A stretch of DNA of 47,282 nt from the IMG/VR virus record IMGVR_UViG_3300029145_000004, positions 1 to 47,282 of that record; one strand, written 5' to 3'. Each line of letters starts with the position of its first letter. The first letter of the stretch is position 1. This stretch comes from a virus (lineage: Duplodnaviria; Caudoviricetes). The notes under the pieces are model-generated. The model saw only the letters and a program-made list of their open reading frames with translations, had not been told where the DNA came from and did no database searches. Shown here piece after piece: positions 2,663 to 42,606 of the stretch. The position numbers and the translations under genes were made by a program.

Positions 2663-3112
2663 ATGGAAAAGAATAGACAAGGGAATTTTGTTAGTGAAAC
2701 TCATAGAGAATGTACCAATTGTAGTACTATTTTCGAGAAGACTAGCAAGATGACTTTATGCAAGAACTGTAATAGTAGTAGAGTTAAGAGTATGACCCCT
2801 GAATGGAAAATGCATCAGAGAGCTAAGGTTAGAGCAAAAGAAGAAGGTCGTAGCTTTAACATCTTAGTATCTGACGTTGTTATCCCAGACACTTGTCCAG
2901 TATTAGGTATAAAACTTAATATGAATTCTGGTAGATCAGGAGCATACCCTAACTCTCCCTCTTTAGATAGAACTGATAATTCTATAGGCTATGAGAAGCA
3001 TAATGTACAAGTTATCTCACAAGCCGCTAACAGAATGAAAGGTCAGGCTACTAATAAGGAATTGCATTTATTTGCCCAATGGATTCTTAAACATGTCCCT
3101 GCTACAGATTAA
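2663..3112 (+). CDS. Intron-encoded His-Me finger (HNH-like) homing endonuclease
   Basis: CxxC/CxxC zinc motif, CPVLG, SLDRTDNSIGYEKHNVQVISQAANRMK; AGGAG RBS; lies in the intron P9 region. Confidence 0.85.
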   Translation: MEKNRQGNFVSETHRECTNCSTIFEKTSKMTLCKNCNSSRVKSMTPEWKMHQRAKVRAKEEGRSFNILVSDVVIPDTCPVLGIKLNMNSGRSGAYPNSPSLDRTDNSIGYEKHNVQVISQAANRMKGQATNKELHLFAQWILKHVPATD

Positions 3113-14511: not shown

Positions 14512-14540
14512 TTGACAAAAGAGTAAAAGTATGCTATAAT
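14512..14540 (+). promoter_or_regulatory. Consensus sigma70 promoter, antisense to the structural operon
   Basis: TTGACA-N17-TATAAT with extended -10 TGn. Confidence 0.85.
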
Positions 14541-14544
14541 ATAT

Positions 14545-14643
14545 TCTTTCTTTTAAAGACGCTTTGCGTCAAGTTTTCTTTTTAGGGTGAAGTTTATTAA
14601 ATATACATAAGAAGCTGTGAACAAACACAGCTTCTATATATTA
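14545..14643 (+). ncRNA. Putative small RNA copy A (U-rich, two hairpins)
   Basis: Downstream of the consensus promoter; hairpins 14558-14570 and 14610-14635; homologous to copy B at 36984-37087. Confidence 0.6.
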
Positions 14644-14644
14644 A

Positions 14645-15436
14645 TTAAGGTTCATCATTTCTATATCCTAATATACCCCATCCAAGTAATATTAAGTCTT
14701 TACCATCTTCTGCTAAAAATCTTAGATTTAATGCTCTTCCTCTTCCTCTTAGTTTATTCTTAGTTATGATAACATCAGGACCATAATCAAATGTATCTCC
14801 AGCAGAAGGACTAGCTGCTTTAGGAAGAAACAATCTATAAGCTTGAAACTGACTTCCTATCTTCCCTTGTGCATCTGTAACAGCGAAGTCCCACCTAGCT
14901 GTAGTTAAACAGCTTGAAGGTCTTATAGCAGTTACTACTCCATCTACTAAGCTATACACCTCTTCTGTTCTCTTACAATATATCATTATGTATATAGCTT
15001 GTTTCATTCTCATCATATCCCCACCTAAGTCTCTTCCTGTGACTAGATAGGCATCGAAGTCAAATCCATCTGTGTTATATGATTCCCAGTCCTTGAAGTT
15101 AAAGCTCTTATACTCAGAGAGAGTTATGTCTGTTCCCTGTGTAGAGAGAAACTTAAACTTCTCTCTTCTTGTTTCTGCTGTTCTATTTGATGTTATGAAT
15201 CCATCCACAGTGACAGTGTTACCACTCCCATCTACTACTATGTCTCCATCATCGTCTAGAACAGTGAGTTCCACAGCTTCTTTAACAAGCTTGCCTATAG
15301 GAATGTAGTCATGCACTCTAGGAGCACTAGCATCTGAAGCATGACCAAAGTCATACACATAGAATGCTCCCAAGGTTAAGTCTAACACCATCTCCTTGTT
15401 ATAGCTTGTAGGGAAATTACTTTCTGTACTAGCCAT
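14645..15436 (-). CDS. Tail tubular protein B (nozzle), C-terminal part
   Basis: YNKEMVLDLTLGAFY; TKNKLRGRGRALNLRF..EDGKDLILLGW C-terminal nozzle motif. Confidence 0.7.
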   Translation of the reverse strand: MASTESNFPTSYNKEMVLDLTLGAFYVYDFGHASDASAPRVHDYIPIGKLVKEAVELTVLDDDGDIVVDGSGNTVTVDGFITSNRTAETRREKFKFLSTQGTDITLSEYKSFNFKDWESYNTDGFDFDAYLVTGRDLGGDMMRMKQAIYIMIYCKRTEEVYSLVDGVVTAIRPSSCLTTARWDFAVTDAQGKIGSQFQAYRLFLPKAASPSAGDTFDYGPDVIITKNKLRGRGRALNLRFLAEDGKDLILLGWGILGYRNDEP

Positions 15437-15437
15437 C

Positions 15438-18110
15438 TTATGTCACCCTTATAGCAAGTCCCTTTATAGCATCAGTACCAGATATAGTTCTATATGCTAA
15501 ATATAACACACCATTACCTAGATGAGTTACTTCAGGGTGTCTTTCAAATAATGTAGCTGTCTCTAAACTAGTAGAAGAAGATAGAGTAGCTGGATCTCCT
15601 AAACTATAGTTTGCTAGTGTTAATGTTTGAGGAGAACCTTCCTCTATATATATACCCCATAGAGAACCATTATAAACAACACTAGTATTATACATATTAG
15701 TTTCAGACAAGGTAGGAGTTGTAAAGAATGTAGCTGCCTCAATATCCACATCAGTACTATTAGCTGCAAGCTTGTAAACTACAATACCATCCTCGTTAGA
15801 AACTGAGGCATTACTTATAACACCAGTACCAAAGCATATAGCTCTAGTACTGTTAAATGGTTGTATATCAGGTATTAAACTTTGTACAGCAGTAGTACCA
15901 GCAGGAAAGTCTCCAAATACAGGTCCAGTAGACTCAGTATTAAGTGTTATAGTAACATCACTAATAGAGAAAGATGAGCTACTTTGTGTATTACTTCCTG
16001 ATGTCATATCAGCATACATACCAAAGGTAGTAGTTAGCATACACACCTTAGTGTTAAGATGGTTCTGAGAGGAAGTAGACACCACTGTTCCAAAGGAAAT
16101 AGTAGATCCTACTACCTTAACTACCTGCATACTACCTACACCATTAGTTAGATTTCTACTTCTAACTACTATTCTCTCACTATCTATAGGAGCAGTTCTA
16201 AGCTGAGCAGTTTGTGTTAAGGGACCAAACACACTATTAATAACAGAAGCACTACCAACTGTAGGAGTACTACCTGAAAAAGTTATTAGTCTAGCCTTAG
16301 TTTCGCTAGAAGTCTCAGAGGTTATCAATACTATTCTATTGTCAGAGAGTCGCTCTGCTGTCCATCCCCTAGCTCCCCCATTAATACCCGTGTCTACTAG
16401 TTCTACTTCAGTGTCCAGGGTAACTGCTAAAGTAGTTGTATCTATAGTTGATACTTGATAATATATCCTTCTTACATTAGTATCTGAATATACAGTGAAT
16501 GCTACTGTATTGCTTACAGCAATTGTTTCAGGCTCTCTACGTCCAGAAGGACCAGCTACTGGTTCTCCTATTTCAAATACAGGAGGAGCAGGAGCAGGTA
16601 TGTCTAGAACATTATCACTAAACAAGTTAAATAGCCATCTAATACTATTAGTGCTTACATCGTAATATGCCTTAACTCCTCTCTTAGTGAAATCAGGCAG
16701 TGTATTAAAAGCACTCTGTATGGTGTTTAATGTAATATTAACTGTATCATATCCTGTACCAAGCTGATTAGGAGTCATAGTGAATATACCATCTGTTCCC
16801 CAGAAGTATATAATACCATTAGCATCGAGTATAGACTCTCTAGCTATAACACCTATGTTTGATACTTTGTTTACCTGGAAGCTAGTAGCTCTAAAGCCTC
16901 CCTCATCCCCTCTAATCTCCCATACACCGTTCTCAGCAAACACAAGTATGCTACCCTGTGTGTTCTGTATTTTAACTATGTTAGAAGCCTCTGTGATGAA
17001 TATAACACCACCATCTGTATCTACTAGTTCACTGTCATTAGGAGAAGTAGGATCTGCCTCTTGGTAGCATTTAACTAAATCAGCATCACTACTAGCTACC
17101 TGAGAGAACAATACAGCACCAGACAACTTGGGAGATACATCTCTCCCCTCTAGCTTACTGTTAATTCCAGAGTAGAAGAGTCTTCCACCCATAGAAGCAA
17201 CAGTAGAGACTCTACGAACCTCTCTATCAGTTGTAGGCATTGTAAGACCTGTAAGAGTCTCTCTAGAGTTTCCTCTATTATACAAGTCTATTATGTAATG
17301 TCCTCTAGCTGCTCTTCCTATATCAAAGCTATTTCTTTCTAGGGTAGTAGCATCATACTTATCTACGTCTGCATCTGTTACATCTGCAATCTTACCTAAT
17401 GACCATGTATCACTATTAGAAGGATATTTACCTAAAGCATTAAATGTTTCTGTTAATACTTCAGCACCATTCTTTGTTACAATGTTAGTGTTCCACCCTT
17501 GGTTCCTGAGATTATATTCATGAGCATCCGTCAGAGCCGTAGGTCTTTCACTAACATCCAATCCATCAGTAACACCATACAAATCTCTAATCTCTAGTCT
17601 AGCTGTATCCCATGAGATAGTGTCTGTGTCTCCATCATAATATAAGATGAAGGGAGTGTCTAGCCCAGAGGATACAACTATTAAATTGTTATTGATTAGA
17701 GCAAAATCAAAGATAGCTGTGTTATCTATCACAGAGGATGCTGTAGAAGCATCAAAAGCATTCCCACTGTTTAATACATTATCAGAAGGATTCTCTGTAA
17801 ACAGGTCAATGAAATAAAGCTTTGTGCCTATTTGAATAACACCTATTTCTACGTCAGTGAAACCACTAGGTGTAGGCCATACAAAGGCACGTTGTCTAGA
17901 TGCAGCTAATTGTTCAGCAGTTTGTCCAGTAGGTTGTAGAGCGTAGGAGTCCTCATAGTCTAAACCAAGCCTACGTTCTCTAGTACCATCTCTTTTTAAC
18001 TTCATATTAACTTCATCAAGGGAAGCTCCCTCTGGGAAGTTTAAAGGGCTTGCTTCTGTTATATAGCCCTTTACAAAGTTATTTACCTGTGTATCACCTT
18101 TTTGTGGCAT
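15438..18110 (-). CDS. Tail tubular protein B (nozzle), N-terminal part fused to a ~390-aa beta-rich extension
   Basis: NNFVKGYITEASPLNFP, RRLGLDYE, YNLRNQGW, CYQEADPT, DTDGGVI motifs; PAPAPP linker then an S/T-rich domain. Confidence 0.75.
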   Translation of the reverse strand: MPQKGDTQVNNFVKGYITEASPLNFPEGASLDEVNMKLKRDGTRERRLGLDYEDSYALQPTGQTAEQLAASRQRAFVWPTPSGFTDVEIGVIQIGTKLYFIDLFTENPSDNVLNSGNAFDASTASSVIDNTAIFDFALINNNLIVVSSGLDTPFILYYDGDTDTISWDTARLEIRDLYGVTDGLDVSERPTALTDAHEYNLRNQGWNTNIVTKNGAEVLTETFNALGKYPSNSDTWSLGKIADVTDADVDKYDATTLERNSFDIGRAARGHYIIDLYNRGNSRETLTGLTMPTTDREVRRVSTVASMGGRLFYSGINSKLEGRDVSPKLSGAVLFSQVASSDADLVKCYQEADPTSPNDSELVDTDGGVIFITEASNIVKIQNTQGSILVFAENGVWEIRGDEGGFRATSFQVNKVSNIGVIARESILDANGIIYFWGTDGIFTMTPNQLGTGYDTVNITLNTIQSAFNTLPDFTKRGVKAYYDVSTNSIRWLFNLFSDNVLDIPAPAPPVFEIGEPVAGPSGRREPETIAVSNTVAFTVYSDTNVRRIYYQVSTIDTTTLAVTLDTEVELVDTGINGGARGWTAERLSDNRIVLITSETSSETKARLITFSGSTPTVGSASVINSVFGPLTQTAQLRTAPIDSERIVVRSRNLTNGVGSMQVVKVVGSTISFGTVVSTSSQNHLNTKVCMLTTTFGMYADMTSGSNTQSSSSFSISDVTITLNTESTGPVFGDFPAGTTAVQSLIPDIQPFNSTRAICFGTGVISNASVSNEDGIVVYKLAANSTDVDIEAATFFTTPTLSETNMYNTSVVYNGSLWGIYIEEGSPQTLTLANYSLGDPATLSSSTSLETATLFERHPEVTHLGNGVLYLAYRTISGTDAIKGLAIRVT

Positions 18111-29558: not shown

Positions 29559-31561
29559 TAGGTATCCGAGTAAATATTATTAAATTCTTTACTTATAGTA
29601 ATTCTAGTAGATGTCTTCCTACTAATAGTGGACGTTGTGTTATTTCCTACAAAGTTTCCTACCGTGCTTGTATTGGTGTCATTCTGATGAACTAAGGTAG
29701 CATTACTATTGCTAGCAAGGAAGTCATTAAAAGAGACACTATCTAACACTACACCACCAGTAACTTTAATGAAATACCTACAATAGTCAGTGTCTATACT
29801 GTTATAGCTTATAGAAGCATTAGTGGTTATAGAGAAGATGTCTCCAGAAGATTTATGAGCATTACTGCCTATAACATCATTCCTATTAGCTGTCCACTTA
29901 CTTCCTGTTTCTCCCCACAGAGAGAACACTGCTCTACCACCACCTACAGGATTTAATATAGTGTTCTTACTACAAACCCCTACACCATCAGCGAAGAGAT
30001 AACCTGATATCTTAGAGACTGTTGTAGCAAAGTCATCACACTCAATTAGGTTGTTCTCTACAACAATCTTAGAAGCACCTCTAAAGAGGCTTATATTGCC
30101 TCCTACACCAGAGAAAGTGTTTCCTCTTATTATAGCTTTGCTATTCTTTCTTATCTCTGCATGAGTAGGTCTGATACCTATCGTAGCATTCACTGAATAA
30201 GCATTACCAAAGTTACCAGAGAACACTGAGTTAAGGAGGTGCATTTCATAACTGTCACTTCCCCATTCAACTCCAGCACCTGCTGCTACGCCAGTTATCC
30301 TGCAATTTTCTACATATGAATATCTAGCTCTACAATGAACAGAAGCTCTTCCTTCTATCTGACATCCTACCACTCTGAATAGAATACAATCAGCATGAGA
30401 AGAGATAGACTGGCTTTCCATCTGACCTATAAAATTATAATAGGTTATGTCTCTTTGTCCTTGTGTGGCATCAAAGCTATGCCATCCTCTACGTCCTTGC
30501 CCAGCAAATACACGAGAGTAGCAACAGAACGTGTGCATAACACTATAACCAAAACTAGGAGCAGCATCTGCATCTGTAGAAGGGTCTGCACCATGTCTTT
30601 CACAGATGGGATCATAATGTGTATCACCAGAGCAGAGACGTATTTCTATACCTCTGCGAAGAGGATTGATGAACCTCTGTCCACGAAAAACTGCTAGGTT
30701 TATCTCACTAACCTCTAGTGCTCTAGAACATCTCTCTCTTATGTCCCAAGTACCTCCTATAAACTCAACCTTTTGGGCTGTCTTATAAACATGTACCTCT
30801 GGTAGTCCTACTCCGCCTTCTGCTTGGTGCAAGGCTCCTGTGAAGTCACATAGTAGAGAAGCATCTAGGTATATCCTACTACCTACAACACTACTCACCC
30901 GTGCAGGCTCTTGTGTCTTATTCTTGTTAGCTTGCTTCTGAAACTTCTCATTGCTCACTAATACTAGCAAGTCTCCTTCCTCTATACCTGAAGGATTTGA
31001 TACATCAATGAACACAGCTCCTTTAAGAGCATCACTAGCTAACGTTGTAACGCTTTCAGCTACAGCCCTTTCATTAGCTTTATTAGTTCTACCATTACGT
31101 CTCCCTCTTATCTGAAGGAACAGCTTAGTGGTGTCTTCTTGTGCAGGAATGAAGGTTGCTCCAGACCAATCTAAAGTTGTGTCGTCTGACACGTTCCAGC
31201 TTGTTTCTAAATCTATTCTAAACTTCCCATTAGCTATTAACTTCTTAGGAGGACTCTGCTCTGCTAACACCTCCATAGCCTTAGAGAAAGCTATTGTATC
31301 ATTTGCAAAACCATCTCCTACGGCTCCAAATGCTTTAACGTTAAATCCATTATCACTGGGGAGTACATACAAAGGCACTCCCCCTCTAGTTTTCACGTGA
31401 TAATCTGTAGCGTCGAGAGCAGCTTCTTTATAAGCAAATCTCTCACGCTTAGTGTTCCACACTGTTCCCTCTCCTAAAGGAGGGGCTACACTGTCTAATA
31501 AATCTAAAGCTGTCTCAAAGGTTTCTTGTGTAGAGAAGAAGAGATTTCCTCTCGCTATCAT
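29558..31561 (-). CDS. Tailspike / pectate-lyase-like beta-helix depolymerase
   Basis: NVKAFGAVGDGFANDTIAF beta-helix cap motif, followed by N/C-ladder repeats. Confidence 0.8.
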   Translation of the reverse strand: MIARGNLFFSTQETFETALDLLDSVAPPLGEGTVWNTKRERFAYKEAALDATDYHVKTRGGVPLYVLPSDNGFNVKAFGAVGDGFANDTIAFSKAMEVLAEQSPPKKLIANGKFRIDLETSWNVSDDTTLDWSGATFIPAQEDTTKLFLQIRGRRNGRTNKANERAVAESVTTLASDALKGAVFIDVSNPSGIEEGDLLVLVSNEKFQKQANKNKTQEPARVSSVVGSRIYLDASLLCDFTGALHQAEGGVGLPEVHVYKTAQKVEFIGGTWDIRERCSRALEVSEINLAVFRGQRFINPLRRGIEIRLCSGDTHYDPICERHGADPSTDADAAPSFGYSVMHTFCCYSRVFAGQGRRGWHSFDATQGQRDITYYNFIGQMESQSISSHADCILFRVVGCQIEGRASVHCRARYSYVENCRITGVAAGAGVEWGSDSYEMHLLNSVFSGNFGNAYSVNATIGIRPTHAEIRKNSKAIIRGNTFSGVGGNISLFRGASKIVVENNLIECDDFATTVSKISGYLFADGVGVCSKNTILNPVGGGRAVFSLWGETGSKWTANRNDVIGSNAHKSSGDIFSITTNASISYNSIDTDYCRYFIKVTGGVVLDSVSFNDFLASNSNATLVHQNDTNTSTVGNFVGNNTTSTISRKTSTRITISKEFNNIYSDT

Positions 31562-32106
31562 TTAACAGCCTTTAAGCCAAGTCTTTGCATATCATCTGCA
31601 TATTCATTACTTGTATCCACTTCTCTCTTAAGAGCAGCTTCCTTCTCAAGCTTAGAAGGTCTTCCCTTCGTAGCCTTATCTGCATACCCTTTCTCAGCTA
31701 AATACTTAGCAGCTTGCATTCTATTCTTGTCCTCTTCATCATTTGCCATAGCAACTATAGCAGCAATGCTTTTACACTTATGTTTAGTTTCTAGTTCTTC
31801 CTTCCAACCCTCAATGATGGGCTTAAGAATGGGAGAAGCTTGTAACCTCAACCAATGTTCCCATCCACCAAGAATAGTTTCTGCAAACTCATATTCATAA
31901 CCAGGTACATGAGGATATTCCAGATATATTTTCTTCAAACTCTTACAGCCTCTATGATCATGACTCTTAGTTGTGAACATAGGCTTCTCAGGAACCCCTG
32001 TGTTAAACTCAAAGAAAAGGCCCGTAGTAAACCATTTATTTCTCTTATCTTTGAAAGGGGAATTATTAGTGTTCGCTAGAAATGGATGTGGAGTATCTTC
32101 TGACAT
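31558..32106 (-). CDS. Putative terminase small subunit
   Basis: First gene of the virion arm; EYEFAETILGGWEHW, AAKYLAEKGY, KGRPSK; GAGG RBS. Confidence 0.55.
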   Translation of the reverse strand: MSEDTPHPFLANTNNSPFKDKRNKWFTTGLFFEFNTGVPEKPMFTTKSHDHRGCKSLKKIYLEYPHVPGYEYEFAETILGGWEHWLRLQASPILKPIIEGWKEELETKHKCKSIAAIVAMANDEEDKNRMQAAKYLAEKGYADKATKGRPSKLEKEAALKREVDTSNEYADDMQRLGLKAVK

Positions 32107-32874
32107 AATATATTGATTTATTTAGAGGTGTGTTTATTGAAGGCATAGAGGAGCCATTTTCCCTTTGATAGTAGTTATTACTTGTAGTAGTAATACTAGT
32201 AGTCTATCTCACAACTTATATTATTCATATAAGCAAGGTACTCATCCTTCCCTTTGGACTAACGTCTACATGTAAGCAATCCTCAAGGCTTCCCCATGTC
32301 ATACATGCAATAGTAGCAGTTTCTTAAACTGTTTATAACCACATTCAAGTAAAATGTGTATCAAAGGACTAGGTTGTCAGGCTTGGACAGAGCCTAGATT
32401 TATGTTGTCTTTGACATTATAACATAAGGTTTAGTTCCCTAAGTATATTAAATTATTTATAGACCCTTGAAAATGAATAATTTTTATGAGAAAATTTTTA
32501 GTTGCATTGCAATGAAAGCAGTGGACCCCCTAACCCCCTGCCTGGCCCTTTGTCACACAACACCTTTCTCTATTCTGAACATCGTGACCGGCTTTATGCT
32601 AATAATGCTATCCGACTTTCTAGTACATTTGTCCTAGTTACTCTCAGAGTCAGTAGTGATCCTCAGAGTTAGTATTGTTTCCAAATATTCTACAATGTAG
32701 TGCCATACTCTATAACACTTTGTAACCACTGATTATTGCTCTCACCTAATACAATAGTATCCCTCTCTTCTAATGTATAGGACAAAACCAGAACATATTT
32801 AGTACTAATGTACTATTTACTTTTCCTGGAATGAGACGATAATGTTCTCATGAGCAACGCAAACGGAGAACGAA

Positions 32875-34921: not shown

Positions 34922-35087
34922 TGAAGATATACATGGCTAGATTTTTAACCACTACAAACAAAAAGATTATGGGGGTTATAGCTTCTTCTTCTTATGATGA
35001 GGCATATCTTCTGGCAATGAACAGTGTTATGTATATGGAACCTGGTACAGAATTTGAAATAGTTAAATTTACAGAAGAGGTGACGAA

Positions 35088-35363
35088 ATGATTTTTCCAG
35101 AGAGACACGGGTTGAGTTGGACGAATGATGAAATATACCAAGTTATAAGAGAATATAAGGCCGGTCACGGGATAAAATATTTAGCTGATAAACATAAAAG
35201 GACAATTAGATCTATAGAATATCTTCTTCATAAAGAAATAGGTACAGAAACTTCTGATATAGTAATAAATGAAATTAACTTTACTGAGGCTATTAATGTA
35301 GCTAGGAGAATAGTTTTTAATAAGATAGAATTAAATTGTATGTTAAAAGGAGTAGAGAGATGA
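35088..35363 (+). CDS. Putative helix-turn-helix DNA-binding protein
   Basis: GLSWTNDE...IKYLADKHKRTIRSIEYLL resembles a Myb/GcrA-like HTH; GAGGTG RBS. Confidence 0.5.
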   Translation: MIFPERHGLSWTNDEIYQVIREYKAGHGIKYLADKHKRTIRSIEYLLHKEIGTETSDIVINEINFTEAINVARRIVFNKIELNCMLKGVER

Positions 35364-35535: not shown

Positions 35536-36288
35536 GTGGGAAATAGTTATGTTGTTAGTCAAGAGCGCTGTCCTAAATGTAGTGAAATGGGCAAGGACCA
35601 ATCAGGAGACAATCTCGCTGTGTATTCAGACAGTCACAGGTATTGCTTTGGTTGCGGCTACTACAGGAGTGGGAATGTTTCTTATGTTTCACGTGATGCA
35701 GCTGCATTAGAAAAGAGACACAAAGTGTCATTACCAGAAGATTGCAACACCGATTACACACAGCAGGAATTAAACTGGGTAGCACAATACGATCTTTGCA
35801 GATCTTCCCTTCTAAAGTATAACGTGTTGCATAGTGATAAGGGAATACGCATTAATAGGAAAGGGGAATTAGTAGAGATAGAGCATGTTCTAATCTTCCC
35901 TGTATTCGATGATGGATTGCTAGGCTATCAAGCTAGAACCTTTATAGAAGATGTTCCTAAGTGGATAGGTAGAGGTAAGTGGGTGGATATATACAACATA
36001 CTACCTGGAAGTAAAACACTCGTGTTAACAGAGGATATAGTGTCTGCTATTAAGGTTAACATGGCCGGTCACGCTTCGATGCCAGTGTATGGAAGCACCA
36101 TTAAGAATAGATTTGAGAGGCTTTACAAGCTGGGGTATAGGGATGTTATAATATGGCTTGACCCTGACATGCACACGAAGGTTATAAGGGAAGTTAAGTA
36201 TGCAAAGGGATTAAGCACTAGGATAGTGTTCTCTAACAAAGACCCTAAATGTTATACTTTAAACGAAATAAGAGGATTTTTAAAATGA
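35536..36288 (+). CDS. DNA primase (zinc ribbon plus TOPRIM)
   Basis: CPKC..DNLAVYSDSHRYCFGC; LVLTEDIVSAIKV; WLDPD; KDPK. Confidence 0.88.
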   Translation: MGNSYVVSQERCPKCSEMGKDQSGDNLAVYSDSHRYCFGCGYYRSGNVSYVSRDAAALEKRHKVSLPEDCNTDYTQQELNWVAQYDLCRSSLLKYNVLHSDKGIRINRKGELVEIEHVLIFPVFDDGLLGYQARTFIEDVPKWIGRGKWVDIYNILPGSKTLVLTEDIVSAIKVNMAGHASMPVYGSTIKNRFERLYKLGYRDVIIWLDPDMHTKVIREVKYAKGLSTRIVFSNKDPKCYTLNEIRGFLK

Positions 36289-36289
36289 T

Positions 36290-36562
36290 ATGGACAATAA
36301 ACGAACAGCAGCGATAACATTAATATTGTTTAGCTTAACAGATATGATTAACACATTAACAGTGATAGAGCGGGGAGGGTTGGAACTCAATCCAATAATG
36401 GATTATTATTTGTCAATAGGAATTGAAGCATTTATATTAATTAAATTGTTCTTAACCTTTGGATGTGTACATATAATATATAAATATTCTAGTACAAATA
36501 TACTATTGACATTATCAGCTTTATACTTTATATTAATTTCTTATCAATTTTATATACTTTAG
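36290..36562 (+). CDS. Membrane protein (DUF5658-like)
   Basis: D..T....GGLELNPIM....K motif with three TM helices. Confidence 0.6.
   Translation: MDNKRTAAITLILFSLTDMINTLTVIERGGLELNPIMDYYLSIGIEAFILIKLFLTFGCVHIIYKYSSTNILLTLSALYFILISYQFYIL
36506..36534 (+). promoter_or_regulatory. Sigma70-like promoter
   Basis: TTGACA-N17-TATATT. Confidence 0.5.
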
Positions 36563-36983: not shown

Positions 36984-37087
36984 TAATATATAGAAGCTGT
37001 CCTTTGTTGTACAGCTTCTTAATAATAAATAACTTCAACCCAAGAAAGAAAAAGAAATAATAAATTATTTCTAAAAAGAAAGAAGTA
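36984..37087 (-). ncRNA. Putative small RNA copy B (homolog of 14545..14643)
   Basis: Same order of motifs: ttctttctttt, hairpin, ttttcttt..gggttgaagtt, aagaagctgt-loop-acagcttctatatatt. Confidence 0.6.
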
Positions 37088-37090
37088 TAT

Positions 37091-37119
37091 ATTTTAGCAT
37101 ATTTTAGAGGAGTTGTCAA
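37091..37119 (-). promoter_or_regulatory. Sigma70 promoter, antisense to the replication operon
   Basis: On - strand TTGACA-N17-TAAAAT with extended -10 TGn. Confidence 0.8.
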
Positions 37120-37122
37120 TAG

Positions 37123-37395
37123 GTGATGGATATAAAAGAGAAGATAAAACAGCGTAGGTCACAGATGTTAATTCATTCCTACTTATATTATAAACTTAAC
37201 ACTAGCATAGTGTCTGATTATACTTATGATGGGTGGGCTAAAGAACTTGTATATTTACACAAAGAATGTTATTATATTAACTTCTACGACGATGTATTTA
37301 AAGACTGGGATGGTAGTACAGGTTACCATCTTCCCTATGACAGCTGGGTTATAGGGCAAGCCACAAGGATATTAAAATACCACAATGAACATTAA
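37123..37395 (+). CDS. Stand-alone protein resembling NAD-dependent DNA ligase domain Ia
   Basis: HSYLYY.....IVSDYTYD..AKELVYL matches the LigA N-terminal HxxxYY...ISDxEYD motif. Confidence 0.65.
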   Translation: MMDIKEKIKQRRSQMLIHSYLYYKLNTSIVSDYTYDGWAKELVYLHKECYYINFYDDVFKDWDGSTGYHLPYDSWVIGQATRILKYHNEH

Positions 37396-38545
37396 TTTAC
37401 AGGTAATAAAAGGACTACTTAACAAAGAGGCATACGAAAAATATGCTCATTGGATAAACCCTGATGATACATTAAAGAAGCATTATGACCTATTAGGGGC
37501 TATACATGACTCAAAAGAAGGGGATATAACCTTAGATGAATATCTTCTATTAGCAAATCAGAAGGGTCTTACCTTCTTGGAAGAGCTAAGGGATGTAGAA
37601 GTCGGTCATGAAGCCCTCTCAGAACTCATCAGAATTGAATCTGAGCGCTCTTTTTGTTATTCCCTAGGGTTGATATGCATGGAAGCATTTGAAGGCCGTA
37701 AAACGCTTTCTGACGTGTCTGAGATGTATACAAAACTATCTGACCTAGAGAAGAGAGAGAAGATAGAGTTTATAACAGACAGTTTTGAGGAATTAGCAGA
37801 ATCTGTACACAGGGATGCAGGTATAAAATGGAGACTCCCTTCTTTACAGCAGGCACTAGGTAGTTTAAACAAAGGAGACTTTGGATTCATCTTCGCAAGA
37901 CCTGAAACAGGTAAAACTACCTTCCTAGCAAGTGAGATAAGCTACTTTGTAGAGCAGGTTGAAGGTCCGGTGTTATGGTTTAACAACGAAGAAAGGGGAG
38001 ATAAGGTAAAAACCAGGGTGTGTCAAGCTAATTTAGGCTTGTCAATAGAAGATATGTTCTCAAATTTACTAGAAAACGAGAAAATATACTTGACAAACAC
38101 TAAAAGTTTAGTTAAAATATATGACAGAGGATTCATTCACAAACGTGAAGTAGAAAGAATTGTGAAAGAACTAAACCCTTCTCTAATTGTCTTTGATCAG
38201 ATAGATAAGATTAAGGGGTTTAAGGGTGATAGAGAAGACTTAAGACTAGGAGCCATCTACATATGGGCTAGAGAGTTAGCTAAGGAACATTGCCCTATCA
38301 TAGGTGTATCACAAGCCGCAGCTTCTGGAGAGAATAAACGCTGGCTTGAAATGGATGATGTAGCAAAGAGTAAGACAGAGAAGGCAGCAGAGGCTGATTT
38401 CATTATAGGAATAGGTAAGCGTCACGACGTGGGAGAAGAAGAAACACGATTCTTACACATCATTAAGAATAAATTAACAGGGGTTCATGCAAGAATAACC
38501 TGTAGAATTGACGCTAAGATAGCTAGATATAAGGACATAACATGA
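37385..38545 (+). CDS. Replicative SF4 (DnaB/T7 gp4-like) helicase
   Basis: ARPETGKTT Walker A, NNEE, IVFDQ, IGVSQA, EADFIIGIG, KNK. Confidence 0.9.
   Translation: MNINLQVIKGLLNKEAYEKYAHWINPDDTLKKHYDLLGAIHDSKEGDITLDEYLLLANQKGLTFLEELRDVEVGHEALSELIRIESERSFCYSLGLICMEAFEGRKTLSDVSEMYTKLSDLEKREKIEFITDSFEELAESVHRDAGIKWRLPSLQQALGSLNKGDFGFIFARPETGKTTFLASEISYFVEQVEGPVLWFNNEERGDKVKTRVCQANLGLSIEDMFSNLLENEKIYLTNTKSLVKIYDRGFIHKREVERIVKELNPSLIVFDQIDKIKGFKGDREDLRLGAIYIWARELAKEHCPIIGVSQAAASGENKRWLEMDDVAKSKTEKAAEADFIIGIGKRHDVGEEETRFLHIIKNKLTGVHARITCRIDAKIARYKDIT
38090..38118 (+). promoter_or_regulatory. Sigma70-like promoter inside the helicase gene
   Basis: TTGACA-N17-TAAAAT. Confidence 0.5.
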
Positions 38546-39380: not shown

Positions 39381-39603
39381 TAGATTTACAATATTTATGT
39401 TAGGACTTACAATTATAGGACTAGGGTATTTAGTGACAGATTGTTTAACTAGTCACCACGAAGAACCTCTTCCTGTGTTTAAGGATAGAAACATTATACG
39501 AGTGAGTAATGAGACGGTCACGGAGATGTGTTTTGAGATTAGCCCCACCATCATTAAATGCATCCGTTCAGATGGAACGAGTAGAACAATATTGAAGATA
39601 TGA
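39370..39603 (+). CDS. Single-TM hypothetical protein
   Basis: GGAGG RBS; N-terminal TM helix. Confidence 0.6.
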   Translation: MNISRFTIFMLGLTIIGLGYLVTDCLTSHHEEPLPVFKDRNIIRVSNETVTEMCFEISPTIIKCIRSDGTSRTILKI

Positions 39604-40157
39604 ACATATTAACTCTTGATGTAGAGAACACGATGTATAAGCATCAAGTTAAGAATGAGGAAGGGAAATATAACTCTAAGGATAGAGAAGGAGGTGCAGC
39701 GTCTCTTCCTCAATTCTTGGTGCAAACAGGTTTAAAGTGGAAACACAAAGAAAAAGCAGAAATAGTTAGACATATTTGTAATAAGGAGTATAATAGGAAG
39801 TATATACAAAACCAGATAGATGATGCTGATTTAATTGTAGGGTTTAACATCAAGCATGATTTGTTATGGTTAAAGCGTATAGAAATAGACATATCAAACA
39901 TTAAGGTGTGGGATTGTCAAATAGCAGAATGGCTGCTAAACTCTCAGAACATCTTAGGAAAGAACAGCCTTAATGATGCGTGTGAGAGGCATGGCTTGCC
40001 ACCTAAACTAGATATTATAGAGAACGACTACTGGTCTAAAGGAATAGATACAGACGAGATACCAGCAGATGTTTTAGCTGAATATTTAGAGGGGGATCTG
40101 GATAGGCCAGAGAGAGTATTCTTAAAACAATGTGAATTATTTGAGGTGAAGTTATGA
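39600..40157 (+). CDS. DNA polymerase A fragment 1: 3'-5' exonuclease domain
   Basis: ExoI LDVE, ExoII GFNIKHD, ExoIII YLEGD. Confidence 0.85.
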   Translation: MNILTLDVENTMYKHQVKNEEGKYNSKDREGGAASLPQFLVQTGLKWKHKEKAEIVRHICNKEYNRKYIQNQIDDADLIVGFNIKHDLLWLKRIEIDISNIKVWDCQIAEWLLNSQNILGKNSLNDACERHGLPPKLDIIENDYWSKGIDTDEIPADVLAEYLEGDLDRPERVFLKQCELFEVKL

Positions 40158-40456
40158 AGAAGGTACTAATAAACATATGTTATGGTGTATTTGGTTTATC
40201 GAAAGAAGTGTATGACATCTTAGGTCTGGATAGTAATCATGGAGATATCTATCCAGAAGACTTAGGCTATAATACAGAAGAGAAGATGCGAGCTGATAAA
40301 ACCTTGATAGCAGCTGTTGAAAAGGTCGGTTTGAAAGAGTCTTCAGGGGAATATGCAGAATTAAAGATAGTTGAAATACCTGATGATGTAGAATTTACTA
40401 TAGAAGAGTATGATGGGTTGGAGTGGATAGCAGAAAAACATAGAACATGGGAGTAG
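40154..40456 (+). CDS. Hypothetical phage protein inserted within the polA locus
   Basis: INICYGVFGLS..LKIVEIPDDVEFTIEEYDGLEWIAEKHRTW. Confidence 0.75.
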   Translation: MKKVLINICYGVFGLSKEVYDILGLDSNHGDIYPEDLGYNTEEKMRADKTLIAAVEKVGLKESSGEYAELKIVEIPDDVEFTIEEYDGLEWIAEKHRTWE

Positions 40457-40459
40457 TAT

Positions 40460-40618
40460 ATGGAAGTTTACATAGTATTATCTTATGCGGGTGACTTTTG
40501 GTGGCCTAGTGAAGTTTATAAAGATAGACAGGATGCTATAGAATTTATTAAAGAGTGCCAAGAAAATATACAGTATAGAAATTATAAATTTAAGATAATA
40601 GAGAAAACGGCATGGTAG
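40460..40618 (+). CDS. Small hypothetical protein (52 aa)
   Basis: GGAG RBS; fills the gap. Confidence 0.5.
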   Translation: MEVYIVLSYAGDFWWPSEVYKDRQDAIEFIKECQENIQYRNYKFKIIEKTAW

Positions 40619-40764
40619 ATAGAATAGAAAATGCACAAGAGAACGTAGCAGAATGTAGAAAACTTATAGAAGAACTATTGAAGGAATATAATTGTAGACT
40701 AGCCAGAGGCTATGACAGTGTTGTCCTTTATGACAATGAGTTTAATTATAAGGAATATCTTTAA
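40612..40764 (+). CDS. Small hypothetical protein (50 aa)
   Basis: Overlaps the previous stop and ends just before the polA fragment 2 GTG. Confidence 0.45.
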   Translation: MVDRIENAQENVAECRKLIEELLKEYNCRLARGYDSVVLYDNEFNYKEYL

Positions 40765-40765
40765 T

Positions 40766-41455
40766 GTGGAAAAACTTTATCGCTTGTTCCGCTTACAATG
40801 TGAGGACTTGCTTGTTCTCACTGAAATGGAGTATAATGGAATGCTCTTCGACACTAAAGGAGCATTACAAGAAGCTAACCAATTGGAGGATAGACTGGAT
40901 GAACTTTCTTTACAATTTAAAACATTGGTGCATAACCACGCTGTTGATATTAATAGTGGTAAACATATTTCTGCTGTGCTTTACGGTGGTGTTATTGAAG
41001 AAACTGTTAGAGTTGCTTGTGGAGTTTACAAATCTGGTAATAGAAGGGGTGAGGTCAAGTATAGAAATGAAAAACTTAAGCACACCTTTGAGAGACTTGT
41101 GGAGCCGCTTGATAAAACTGAAACGAAGCGTAGTAAAACACTAGTGGAAGAGGGCAAGAAAACTTCATCTTCTGAATGGAGTGTTAAAGAGGATGTACTA
41201 AAGAAGCTGAAGGCTAAGAAGTTTTGCAAACAGTTAATAGCTATTATACTAGAATATAGAGAGTTATATAAGCTAAAGAGTACATACCTGGAAGGATGGA
41301 GTAATTTAATTACATTTAAAGGATGGAATAAAGATATGATTTACGGTAAACTTAATCAATGCAATGTAGTGACTGGAAGACTTAGCAGTAATAAACCAAA
41401 TTTGCAAAATTGTGATAAAAAAACAAAGAGGTACTTAATATCTAGATATGACTAA
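40766..41455 (+). CDS. DNA polymerase A fragment 2 (thumb region)
   Basis: LTEMEYNGMLFD, INSGKHISAVLY, KLKSTY, VTGRLSSNKPNLQN; AAGGA RBS before GTG 40766. Confidence 0.85.
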   Translation: MEKLYRLFRLQCEDLLVLTEMEYNGMLFDTKGALQEANQLEDRLDELSLQFKTLVHNHAVDINSGKHISAVLYGGVIEETVRVACGVYKSGNRRGEVKYRNEKLKHTFERLVEPLDKTETKRSKTLVEEGKKTSSSEWSVKEDVLKKLKAKKFCKQLIAIILEYRELYKLKSTYLEGWSNLITFKGWNKDMIYGKLNQCNVVTGRLSSNKPNLQNCDKKTKRYLISRYD

Positions 41456-41918
41456 TGAAACTTATTATCAGAGGAATAAACATAAATGGATTAGAGATAC
41501 TGAGGATAAAAAAGAGAGACACAGACAATTAGTAAGAGAGAGTGCAGCTAGGCATAGAGGTAAAAGAGATAAAAAATCTAGAGAATGGAACAGCAAAAAC
41601 TACAATAGGGTTTTATTTGGACAGGCTAGGAGGAGTAGCAAGGTTAGGGGCTTAGCTTTTAATCTTTCTCTTGAAGATATTATAATCCCTGAGTTATGCC
41701 CCTATTTAGAAATACCGCTGACAGCTATACAGGGGCAAGGTATAGTTTGGTCTAATGCCTCTATAGATAGAATAGATAATTCTAAAGGGTATATAAAAGG
41801 AAATATAATGATTTGTTCTAGACTAGCTAATTCAATGAAACAACATGCAACTATAGAAGAAGTCTTAAGGTTTTCTAAGAATGCTATTAATATCTTTAAA
41901 GATTATGTCAATAGTTAA
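41448..41918 (+). CDS. Free-standing His-Me finger homing endonuclease inside polA
   Basis: CPYLEIPL..SIDRIDNSKGYIKGNIMICSRLANSMK. Confidence 0.85.
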   Translation: MTNETYYQRNKHKWIRDTEDKKERHRQLVRESAARHRGKRDKKSREWNSKNYNRVLFGQARRSSKVRGLAFNLSLEDIIIPELCPYLEIPLTAIQGQGIVWSNASIDRIDNSKGYIKGNIMICSRLANSMKQHATIEEVLRFSKNAINIFKDYVNS

Positions 41919-42606
41919 TGTAGATATACGAAGTCTAGAGATATACGTAGCTGCTTGGTTATCTCAGGATAGAGTCCTTCTTAAAGAACTTTTATCTGGA
42001 GAAGATCCTCATGGAAATAACCAGAGAGATTTTAATTTACCAGATAGACTCATAGCTAAAGTATTGATTTTCCGAATAATTTATGGGGGCACTGAATATG
42101 GGTTTGTTAATGACTCTGACTTCACTAGGGTGTCTACCTCCAAGAACTATTGGAGAGGTGTTATAGATAAGTTCTACTCTAAGTATAGAGGTATTGCTTC
42201 TTGGCATGATGGGCTATTACAAGAGGTGGGTAGAACAGGTAAGATAGTAACTCCCTTCGGGAGAGTGTTTAACTACGGAAGGAAAGAGAATGGAGACTTG
42301 CCAGCTTCTGCTATAAAGAACTACATTGTTCAAGGTACAGGGGCAGACATAGTAGCAATGGCTAGAGTGTCTATGTTCAAGCGATGGAAGAAGAGTGGTA
42401 TAGAAGGGAAATTAATAAATACTGTGCATGACAGCATTGTGATTGATTGTCCTTCTAAAGAAGTAGACAAGGTTGTAGCATTAACAAACGAAGTGTTTAG
42501 AGATCTACCGGGAAACATTAACAAGATGTTTGGGGTGGATTTCAACCTACCTGTGAAGGTAGAGATAGCAGTAGGACCAAATCAGAAAGACTTAAAGGAG
42601 TTATAA
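41905..42606 (+). CDS. DNA polymerase A fragment 3 (palm/fingers, motifs A-C)
   Basis: Motif A VNVDIRSLE, motif B RLIAKVLIFRIIYG, NYIVQGTGAD, motif C TVHDSIV. Confidence 0.88.
   Translation: MSIVNVDIRSLEIYVAAWLSQDRVLLKELLSGEDPHGNNQRDFNLPDRLIAKVLIFRIIYGGTEYGFVNDSDFTRVSTSKNYWRGVIDKFYSKYRGIASWHDGLLQEVGRTGKIVTPFGRVFNYGRKENGDLPASAIKNYIVQGTGADIVAMARVSMFKRWKKSGIEGKLINTVHDSIVIDCPSKEVDKVVALTNEVFRDLPGNINKMFGVDFNLPVKVEIAVGPNQKDLKEL

Follow-up and report, generated by a model that had tools for sequence, protein, structure and literature searches.

What is made, or opened, at a phage promoter that points against the operon around it and leads into non-coding DNA? This question is raised by two similar cassettes in a 47,282-nt phage record with terminal overlap, which was analysed as a whole and is called the window in the following. 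A sequence-only reading of the same DNA had described them as a duplicated antisense small-RNA cassette and had proposed a decoy for a host protein, a primer or R-loop RNA, or a convergent-transcription brake as its role. Comparison with relatives indicates that both cassettes are real and under selection and that they represent an apparently undescribed, promoter-coupled element of triplex type. Among the roles proposed earlier, the primer or R-loop RNA is the one favoured by the evidence.

Anatomy of the Two Cassettes

Copy A is located on the plus strand, antisense to the late operon, in the gap that separates the stop codon of a tail-appendage gene (14645) from the following ATG (14503). 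Its sigma70-type promoter (14512–14540) is composed of TTGACA (14512–14517), a 17-nt spacer with a TG extension (14532–14533) and TATAAT (14535–14540), and it is the sole site reaching 12/12 consensus positions among the 19 sites of the window that score at least 10/12 with a 17-nt spacer. At about +1 follows a first pyrimidine tract (arm 1, 14544–14554), the predicted Hoogsteen strand, and then a loop (14555–14573) consisting of the 5-bp hairpin 1, GACGC-TTT-GCGTC (14558–14570), with 3-nt spacers. Arm 2 (14574–14583), the predicted Watson-Crick strand on the purine template, mirrors arm 1 over 8 exact nt (9/10). The second T tract is followed by AGGGTGAAGTT and an A/T linker; the GGGTGAAG motif and this A/T-rich linker span 14584–14609 and lead to the 10-bp hairpin 2 (14610–14635).

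Copy B runs on the minus strand from 37119 to 36984, between the stop codon of a 67-aa ORF (36983) and a ligase-like gene (37123). Its promoter (TTGACA-17-TAAAAT with TG extension, 37091–37119, 11/12) overlaps a GAGGAG upstream of the ligase-like gene. Arm 1, TTCTTTCTTTTT (37073–37084), is separated from arm 2, TTTTTCTTTCTT (37042–37053), by a loop (37053–37072) with an 8-bp hairpin closed by TTTA, the last T of the loop being common to arm 2; this hairpin has A/T in all pairs but one and is weak (-4.1 kcal/mol). Arm 2 is an exact 12-nt mirror of arm 1, and the two form the top-scoring pyrimidine mirror in the window. The GGGTTGAAG motif with an A/T linker (37020–37041) and hairpin 2 with a 9-bp shared stem (36992–37019) complete the cassette. 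Each copy comes after a stop codon, opposes its operon and faces the inferred genome-end region.

The two copies share 75% similarity over query positions 27–144 (E=2e-12), bearing out the earlier description of one architecture on opposite strands and supporting, at the level of sequence, a selected, non-coding, promoter-bearing element. The motif GGGTTGA(A/T)G after arm 2 is present in copies A and B and in three relatives (G002:2870, L009 and L378). The promoter had been called perfect, which applies to copy A and not to copy B with its TAAAAT. The absence of an ORF stands with the qualification that a 47-codon TTG ORF overlaps copy B on the same strand and begins within the -35 box. The element was likewise right to be assigned to no known family: an Rfam search of the whole window returned only a group I intron at the gathering threshold, neither cassette had a match up to E=1, and blastn searches of cultured phages with the region and with copy A gave no matches or short promoter-level ones only.

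The earlier reading had also proposed an RNA of about 95 nt. A defined RNA of this length is not supported, since hairpin 2 lacks a U-tract in cassette direction and its sequence was not found in the relatives, several of which carry other hairpins after an A/T stretch; hairpin 2 is called a terminator only on the opposite, late mRNA (minus) strand of copy A and not in copy B. A search with the hairpin-2 pattern gave two matches compared with 0 in 100 shuffles, and four matches in viral contigs were all unrelated (4/4). A CRISPR-repeat mimic was considered and dropped, there being no Rfam match and no conservation of hairpin 2. In copy A the loop and arm 2 together, i.e., hairpin 1 followed by the U-rich tract, resemble an intrinsic terminator and were flagged as such, and as hairpin 2 is without a U-tract a stop near +40 is likelier than a 95-nt RNA.

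Mirror Symmetry of the Pyrimidine Tracts

The mirror-image relation of the two T-rich tracts, which the earlier reading did not contain, is the conserved core of the element as judged from the sequence comparisons: a pyrimidine mirror repeat starting at about +1, and not hairpin 1. When viral contigs were scanned for the promoter and the first T-rich tract, six loci were obtained, and the second tract mirrors the first in 6/6. Pooling the viral-contig scan with a metagenome scan (116 stretches), in which only the promoter and arm 1 were specified, resulted in 90 distinct loci; an exact mirror 10-mer within 50 nt is present in 12 of these, representing about seven lineages, compared with a direct copy in 0/90. 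Over 45 two-C permutations the median for the 90 loci is 0, and the other frequent permutations are the same arm in a shifted frame. Less restrictive scans were less clean: a looser viral scan gave the mirror in 5/75 and the direct repeat in 2/75, a 3'-anchored scan gave 14 matches with two true members only, a relaxed promoter scan (at least 120 of about 890 stretches) gave mostly chance matches and added L244/L281 and the doubtful L146/147 and L238, and a genome scan gave three matches, one real (L550, a phage contig in a MAG) and two doubtful.

Across 17 representatives, arm 1 starts 3–9 nt after the -10 box in 17/17, the arms are exact over 8–15 nt, and the inner T runs are equal on both arms (4–8). 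Differences outside the search pattern are mirror-compensatory, with CC/CC in L410 and CTC/CTC in L440, and the close relatives L403 and L325 differ by a C shift that is mirror-compensatory as well. An arm-swap permutation (206 vs. 95.7 ± 12, 0/20000) was set aside as evidence for being partly circular, because the choice of loop ends favoured the largest possible mirror and some of the rows were related to one another.

That the tracts are non-functional low-complexity sequence is very improbable and largely excluded already. The regions are A/T-rich and (TTTC)n runs are self-mirroring, and one member with a loop of 1–3 nt (G002:2870) could be a degenerate run of this kind; against this reading stand the background of the window, where 1/3778 81-mers has a comparable mirror, the restriction of the mirror to copies A and B among the 19 promoter-like sites, the direct-repeat control, the fixed distance to the -10 box and the hairpin register.

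This register concerns the position of the loop between the arms. Among the representatives the loop is 1–6 nt or a 5–12-bp hairpin of unrelated sequence, and its variability in size and sequence makes hairpin 1 a linker and not the core. The proposed selection on hairpin 1 and its U-rich loop was thus not upheld: the loops of relatives read GAAA, AAAC, GTTA or TTAATT, or the hairpin is replaced by a spacer of 1–6 nt. Measured from the inner C to the hairpin axis, an anchor that is independent of the mirror fit, the 5' side exceeds the 3' side by 1 nt in six of the seven hairpin-bearing cassettes, copy A being the exception. Such an extra 5' base is expected if the 5' arm folds back to become the third strand of a triplex, as arm 2 would continue the hairpin helix and arm 1 would require a linker to reach the major groove. 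Another variable hairpin, flanked by a GCGAGG...CGAGCT motif, was noted 60–150 nt after arm 2 in L007, L009, L012 and L550; GCGAGG also occurs after an A/T tract in phage QDWS535.

A parallel triplex on one purine strand needs mirror symmetry of its two pyrimidine strands, and the mirror repeat is predicted to form such a triple helix with the template. A same-strand purine partner of more than 8 nt within 300 nt downstream is absent in 16/17 representatives (longest 5–8 nt), and the 12-nt purine targets are found nowhere else in this genome, so that the partner must be the template. The remaining representative, L147 (640–791), has a 12-nt same-strand purine partner downstream, possibly as a variant of the intrastrand-triplex type. 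Of the hybrid triplexes compared in one study, the r(Py)-d(Pu).r(Py) form was the most stable, and its authors anticipate it solely in connection with R-loops formed by transcription (PMC11897885). With arms of 8–15 nt carrying 1–4 C, the triplex would need protonated C.

A U-rich small RNA that acts in trans, binding a host protein or clamping an A-rich RNA elsewhere, is improbable in our view. The strong promoter in front of no ORF, the presence of two copies and the folding z-scores of the cassette strands (-3.3 and -2.3) would suit it; however, the opposite strands fold better (-5.4 and -4.4), a defined 3' end is missing, the genome offers no second purine target, and the arms differ between close relatives. 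As the arms also differ between the two copies while mirror symmetry is kept, a decoy for a fixed host target, as suggested earlier, finds no support.

Genome Context and Addresses in Relatives

The phage is Zobellviridae-like as far as its sequence tells. It has a genome of two gene arms, with replication genes on the plus strand and virion genes on the minus strand, T7-like replication genes without an RNA polymerase, and capsid and terminase relatives; the capsid protein is 63–67% identical to those of MW202697 and of the Methylophilales phages MEP401 and MEP402, the latter two being classed as Zobellviridae. Copy B adjoins the replication genes, between the DNA primase gene (35536–36288, plus strand, PHROG 47/239) upstream and the DnaB-like helicase gene (37385–38545, plus strand, PHROG 19) downstream. 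The replication arm also encodes a family A polymerase in three pieces and a 5'-3' exonuclease; neither an RNA polymerase nor an initiator family was found among the 60 proteins scanned. The first late gene (31558–32106, minus strand, phrog_8035), for which Pfam gave no significant family, is by its position probably the small terminase (TerS-like) gene. The non-coding gap at about 32.1–32.9 kb is likely the genome-end region, as the terminal repeats of cobaviruses have the same position and begin with a G+C-rich part (PMC6775973) and as contigs break there: DNA contigs of run X1 end at 32526/32577, a weak indication, this run possibly being the source sample. Within it lies a C-rich motif (32523–32547) that both copies appear to face. 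The GC skew merely tracks gene direction, and no tRNA or tmRNA was found in the window. Searches for close relatives by protein gave one distant locus in one search and none in another.

Several interrupted or variable genes were observed alongside. A class II ribonucleotide reductase gene is split by a group I intron (Rfam RF00028, 81 bits, 2358–2599), and an endonuclease ORF lies beside the intron (2663–3112). The family A DNA polymerase (39600–42606) is spread over three ORFs, with a 100-aa ORF and an endonuclease ORF (41448–41918) in between, no intron being found there at the Rfam threshold; the split polymerase is also seen in relatives. The genome carries at least six HNH/endonuclease VII genes. 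The tail appendage family phrog_8094 is divided into two ORFs (14645–18110, profile positions 4–516 and 519–766), the first with about 400 extra residues. A 272-nt stretch (35087–35360) is skipped in contigs of runs X3 and X4 with loss of a 91-aa ORF, indicating a strain-variable gene. In the relative L012 a sub-threshold group I intron match (1410–1634, E=2.6e-05) immediately precedes an HNH ORF, which in turn lies upstream of the terminase ORF.

Most members of the cassette family are located directly upstream of, and antisense to, TerS-like and large terminase (TerL) genes and face the genome end (L007/8/10, L009, L011/403/422/438/325, L012, L307 and L550), and several of these contigs end 100–440 nt downstream of the cassette. 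Two cassettes in opposed orientation are present in the complete relative G002: the first lies upstream of the terminase genes, and the second separates the primase-helicase (with a methyltransferase) from the polymerase genes and, like copy B, leads into GGGTTGAAG. The complete phage G011 has one copy. Copy A, 18 kb inside the late operon, occupies an address seen in no relative.

These addresses could point to a packaging or terminal-repeat signal, in which an outward promoter and a triplex-stabilised pause would mark the concatemer junction for terminase. T7 RNA polymerase is known to pause at the concatemer junction to start packaging (PMC3276506), and an outward promoter precedes the right terminal repeat of phage ICBM2 by about 385 nt, which together with the terminase-side position and the nearby contig ends would favour this function. 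However, the present phage is without a copy near its first late gene; the distance to the inferred end is about 4.6 and 18 kb for its two copies and about 11 kb for the second cassette of the complete relative (G002:2870), making packaging unlikely overall.

An antisense brake or insulator was also among the earlier proposals: a promoter that traps polymerase would dampen opposing read-through, and hairpin 2 would end the incoming mRNA. Both copies do follow directly on a stop codon and run antisense to the operon in which they lie, and hairpin 2 of copy A scores as a late-strand terminator. Yet this would leave the mirror covariation unexplained, and the promoters of most relatives point off genes and into the non-coding end region; we therefore consider a brake more improbable than a trans-acting RNA.

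The cassette is absent from 15 annotated Zobellviridae-type genomes (0/139 promoter-like sites), QDWS535 and MW202796 likewise having none, so that it is not a universal origin of the family. Three phages without it (QDWS535, MW202796 and MW202697) have pure A/T tracts, with longest runs of 33–137 nt, as their two 100-bp windows of lowest computed stability; one tract precedes the TerS-like gene and the other lies where primase and helicase meet. A consensus promoter lies directly upstream of 4/6 of these tracts in the three annotated relatives; at the primase-helicase junction it points with the genes, whereas that of copy B points against them. In MEP401, ICBM1 and ICBM2 the least stable window is near the TerS-like gene and a second site is not clear. 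In the present genome it is the primase-helicase interval that contains the two windows of lowest stability, one at 36472 and the other at copy B; among 100-bp windows, copy B ranks at the 99.8th and copy A at the 97.4th percentile of melting ease. Both kinds of address are thus occupied by an A/T tract in some phages and by a promoter with mirror cassette in others, suggesting a common role in DNA opening. Long TA-repeat tracts, candidate unwinding elements, occur in pairs ahead of the TerS-like gene and at the primase-helicase boundary in L582 (48349–48455 and 31672–31777), L583 (18638 and 13772) and L135 (35444 and 1749), three annotated phages that include the cultured Alcaligenes phage QDWS535.

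Candidate Origin Function and Known Triplex Systems

The favoured reading, ranked above a DNA-only switch, packaging, a trans-acting RNA and an antisense brake, is that the cassette is a transcription-driven, triplex-stabilised unwinding and priming site, i.e., a replication origin, although we hold it tentatively and at somewhat less than even chances. Host RNA polymerase would make a short U-rich transcript from the cassette promoter and would pause or stop in arm 2, at a hairpin with U-tract or at a U-tract alone. Arm 2 would remain Watson-Crick paired to the purine template strand, and arm 1, already free, would fold back parallel into the major groove with U.A-U and C+.G-C triads, the clamp rescuing an otherwise weak rU:dA hybrid. 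The RNA 3' end and the displaced strand might then be left beside the A/T-rich stretch for the T7-like polymerase, helicase and primase, and two opposed copies might prime the two strands. The specific step in which the nascent transcript forms an r(Py)-d(Pu).r(Py) fold-back clamp on the template, giving a persistent R-loop whose 3' end primes replication, is a more doubtful proposition than the origin as such. Counting against an origin are the degenerate copy A (8 exact nt, symmetric register, 97th percentile of melting), the single copy of G011 and the position of most members by terminase genes, which fits packaging too.

T4 R-loop origins and ColE1 are examples of transcription-primed origins, and a T7-type origin has an easily unwound A/T-rich region next to a promoter. 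Every T7 origin contains a promoter, the secondary origin phiOR included (PMC8373140), and since the phages studied here must use the host polymerase, a transcription-driven origin is favoured. Like the primary and phiOR origins of T7 (PMC8373140), the cassette accompanies a polymerase, primase and helicase of T7 type, can be present more than once in a genome and has one phiOR-like address, and its promoter is followed by an A/T-rich stretch that may open easily. It differs in that its promoter is of the host sigma70 type, with the consensus present in both copies, and not of the phage-polymerase type, no RNA polymerase family having been found among the 60 scanned proteins, and in that a pyrimidine triplex clamp would keep the hybrid in place, a device that we have not seen described for the origins of T7, T4 or ColE1. 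It may work like T7-type origins without being a member. How replication starts in T7-like phages without an RNA polymerase of their own is not addressed in the available parts of the cobavirus paper (PMC6775973).

In a DNA-only alternative, promoter opening and negative supercoiling would flip the mirror repeat into H-DNA, the RNA being incidental, and the exposed single-stranded DNA would load helicase or throttle the promoter; its variant with the same origin role is indistinguishable here. A homopyrimidine mirror is the defining H-motif (PMC11667243), and such a mirror is found in copy B (12/12), copy A (9/10) and the relatives (9–15 exact). Its interchange with A/T tracts points to DNA melting, and the hairpin stems are almost all Watson-Crick paired. 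Loops such as TTT, TTTA and GTTA suit DNA. Moreover, promoter-less mirrors occur in relatives (G002:12976, G004:8128 and G003:12286), and 39 distinct matches with arms scoring at least 14 are present among the 120 promoter-free loci listed of about 1700. On the other side, H-DNA at neutral pH wants longer arms than 8–15 nt, arm 1 is pinned to the start site, and by the register asymmetry it is the 5' arm that serves as third strand, whereas in H-DNA the 3'-arm isoform usually dominates. A purine-sense mirror occurs at just 1/279 strong promoters in the fetched loci, which is a weak count because the loci were picked on pyrimidine patterns. Taken together, a DNA-only switch is unlikely, if less so than packaging. 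The cassette has pyrimidine mirror arms around a loop and a coupling to transcription in common with H-motifs; it deviates by short arms pinned to a phage sigma70 start site, by a loop that is often a hairpin, and by its U-rich transcript, the known R-loop/H-loop bias being for purine RNA (PMC11667243). The word 'phage' is absent from the main text of this review (PMC11667243).

A promoter-free scan for one arm pair extends the picture to about 1700 estimated stretches in IMG/VR, of which at least 120 were listed. Among the matches listed, 0/122 have a promoter scoring at least 10/12 and a third have long near-perfect arms, up to 29 nt exact; among the neighbours of 26 such loci are terminase genes, holin-NinG/Erf junctions, a primase and an O-like initiator gene, the mirror of L014 lying within the initiator gene itself. 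The lambda origin has a self-mirror purine tract after iteron 4. This wider class and the lambda tract are related in form to the cassette, a common function being only a candidate. Long near-perfect pyrimidine mirrors in other phages (L014–L133) have loops such as ACCT, ACTC and GGTTC. A promoter-less pyrimidine mirror with an ATATA loop (L527:12949–12976 in G002, L579:8128 in G004) is kept 1.5–1.7 kb downstream of the terminase-side cassette in both genomes, and G003 has another promoter-less mirror on the opposite strand (12286).

Other triplex systems are related to a lesser or greater degree. The BoxC, PIT and TM-ECO motifs have mirror-related strands, triplex rules and an occurrence in prokaryotic DNA in common with the cassette, and are described with all three strands on one strand, loops of 1–6 nt and no promoter activity (PMC4666352); the cassette, in contrast, is without a same-strand purine strand in 16/17 cases and its promoter is apparently obligatory, which places it outside this group. 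An ENE has a U-rich internal loop closed by two stems and an A-rich tract in the same RNA. In ENE/MALAT1-type RNA triple helices, as predicted for the cassette, two U-rich strands clamp an A-rich strand, whereas the cassette has no conserved outer stem (alignment A2) and no A-rich tract in its transcript and is thus no member. The r(Py)-d(Pu).r(Py) hybrid triplex corresponds exactly to its predicted geometry; it was studied with synthetic oligonucleotides, and in the accessible parts of that paper no natural example is mentioned, its existence being put forward as a possibility that awaits verification (PMC11897885). Blockage of T7 polymerase by preformed purine-motif triplexes has been reported and does not decide the case of the cassette (PMC4538819). 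No description of phage mirror elements of this kind was found in the literature searched, subscription journals lying outside its coverage. Mirror covariation is invisible to covariance-model screens, which may explain the absence of the element from Rfam.

With about 45 nt and built-in mirror-compensatory mutants, the cassette makes the questions of origin and triplex formation testable in vitro, and it would be categorically new if the RNA clamp is shown. If the clamp reading is true, the cassette would be one branch of a much larger undescribed set of phage pyrimidine mirror elements and would represent a new class of phage origin, used by T7-supergroup phages that lack an RNA polymerase.
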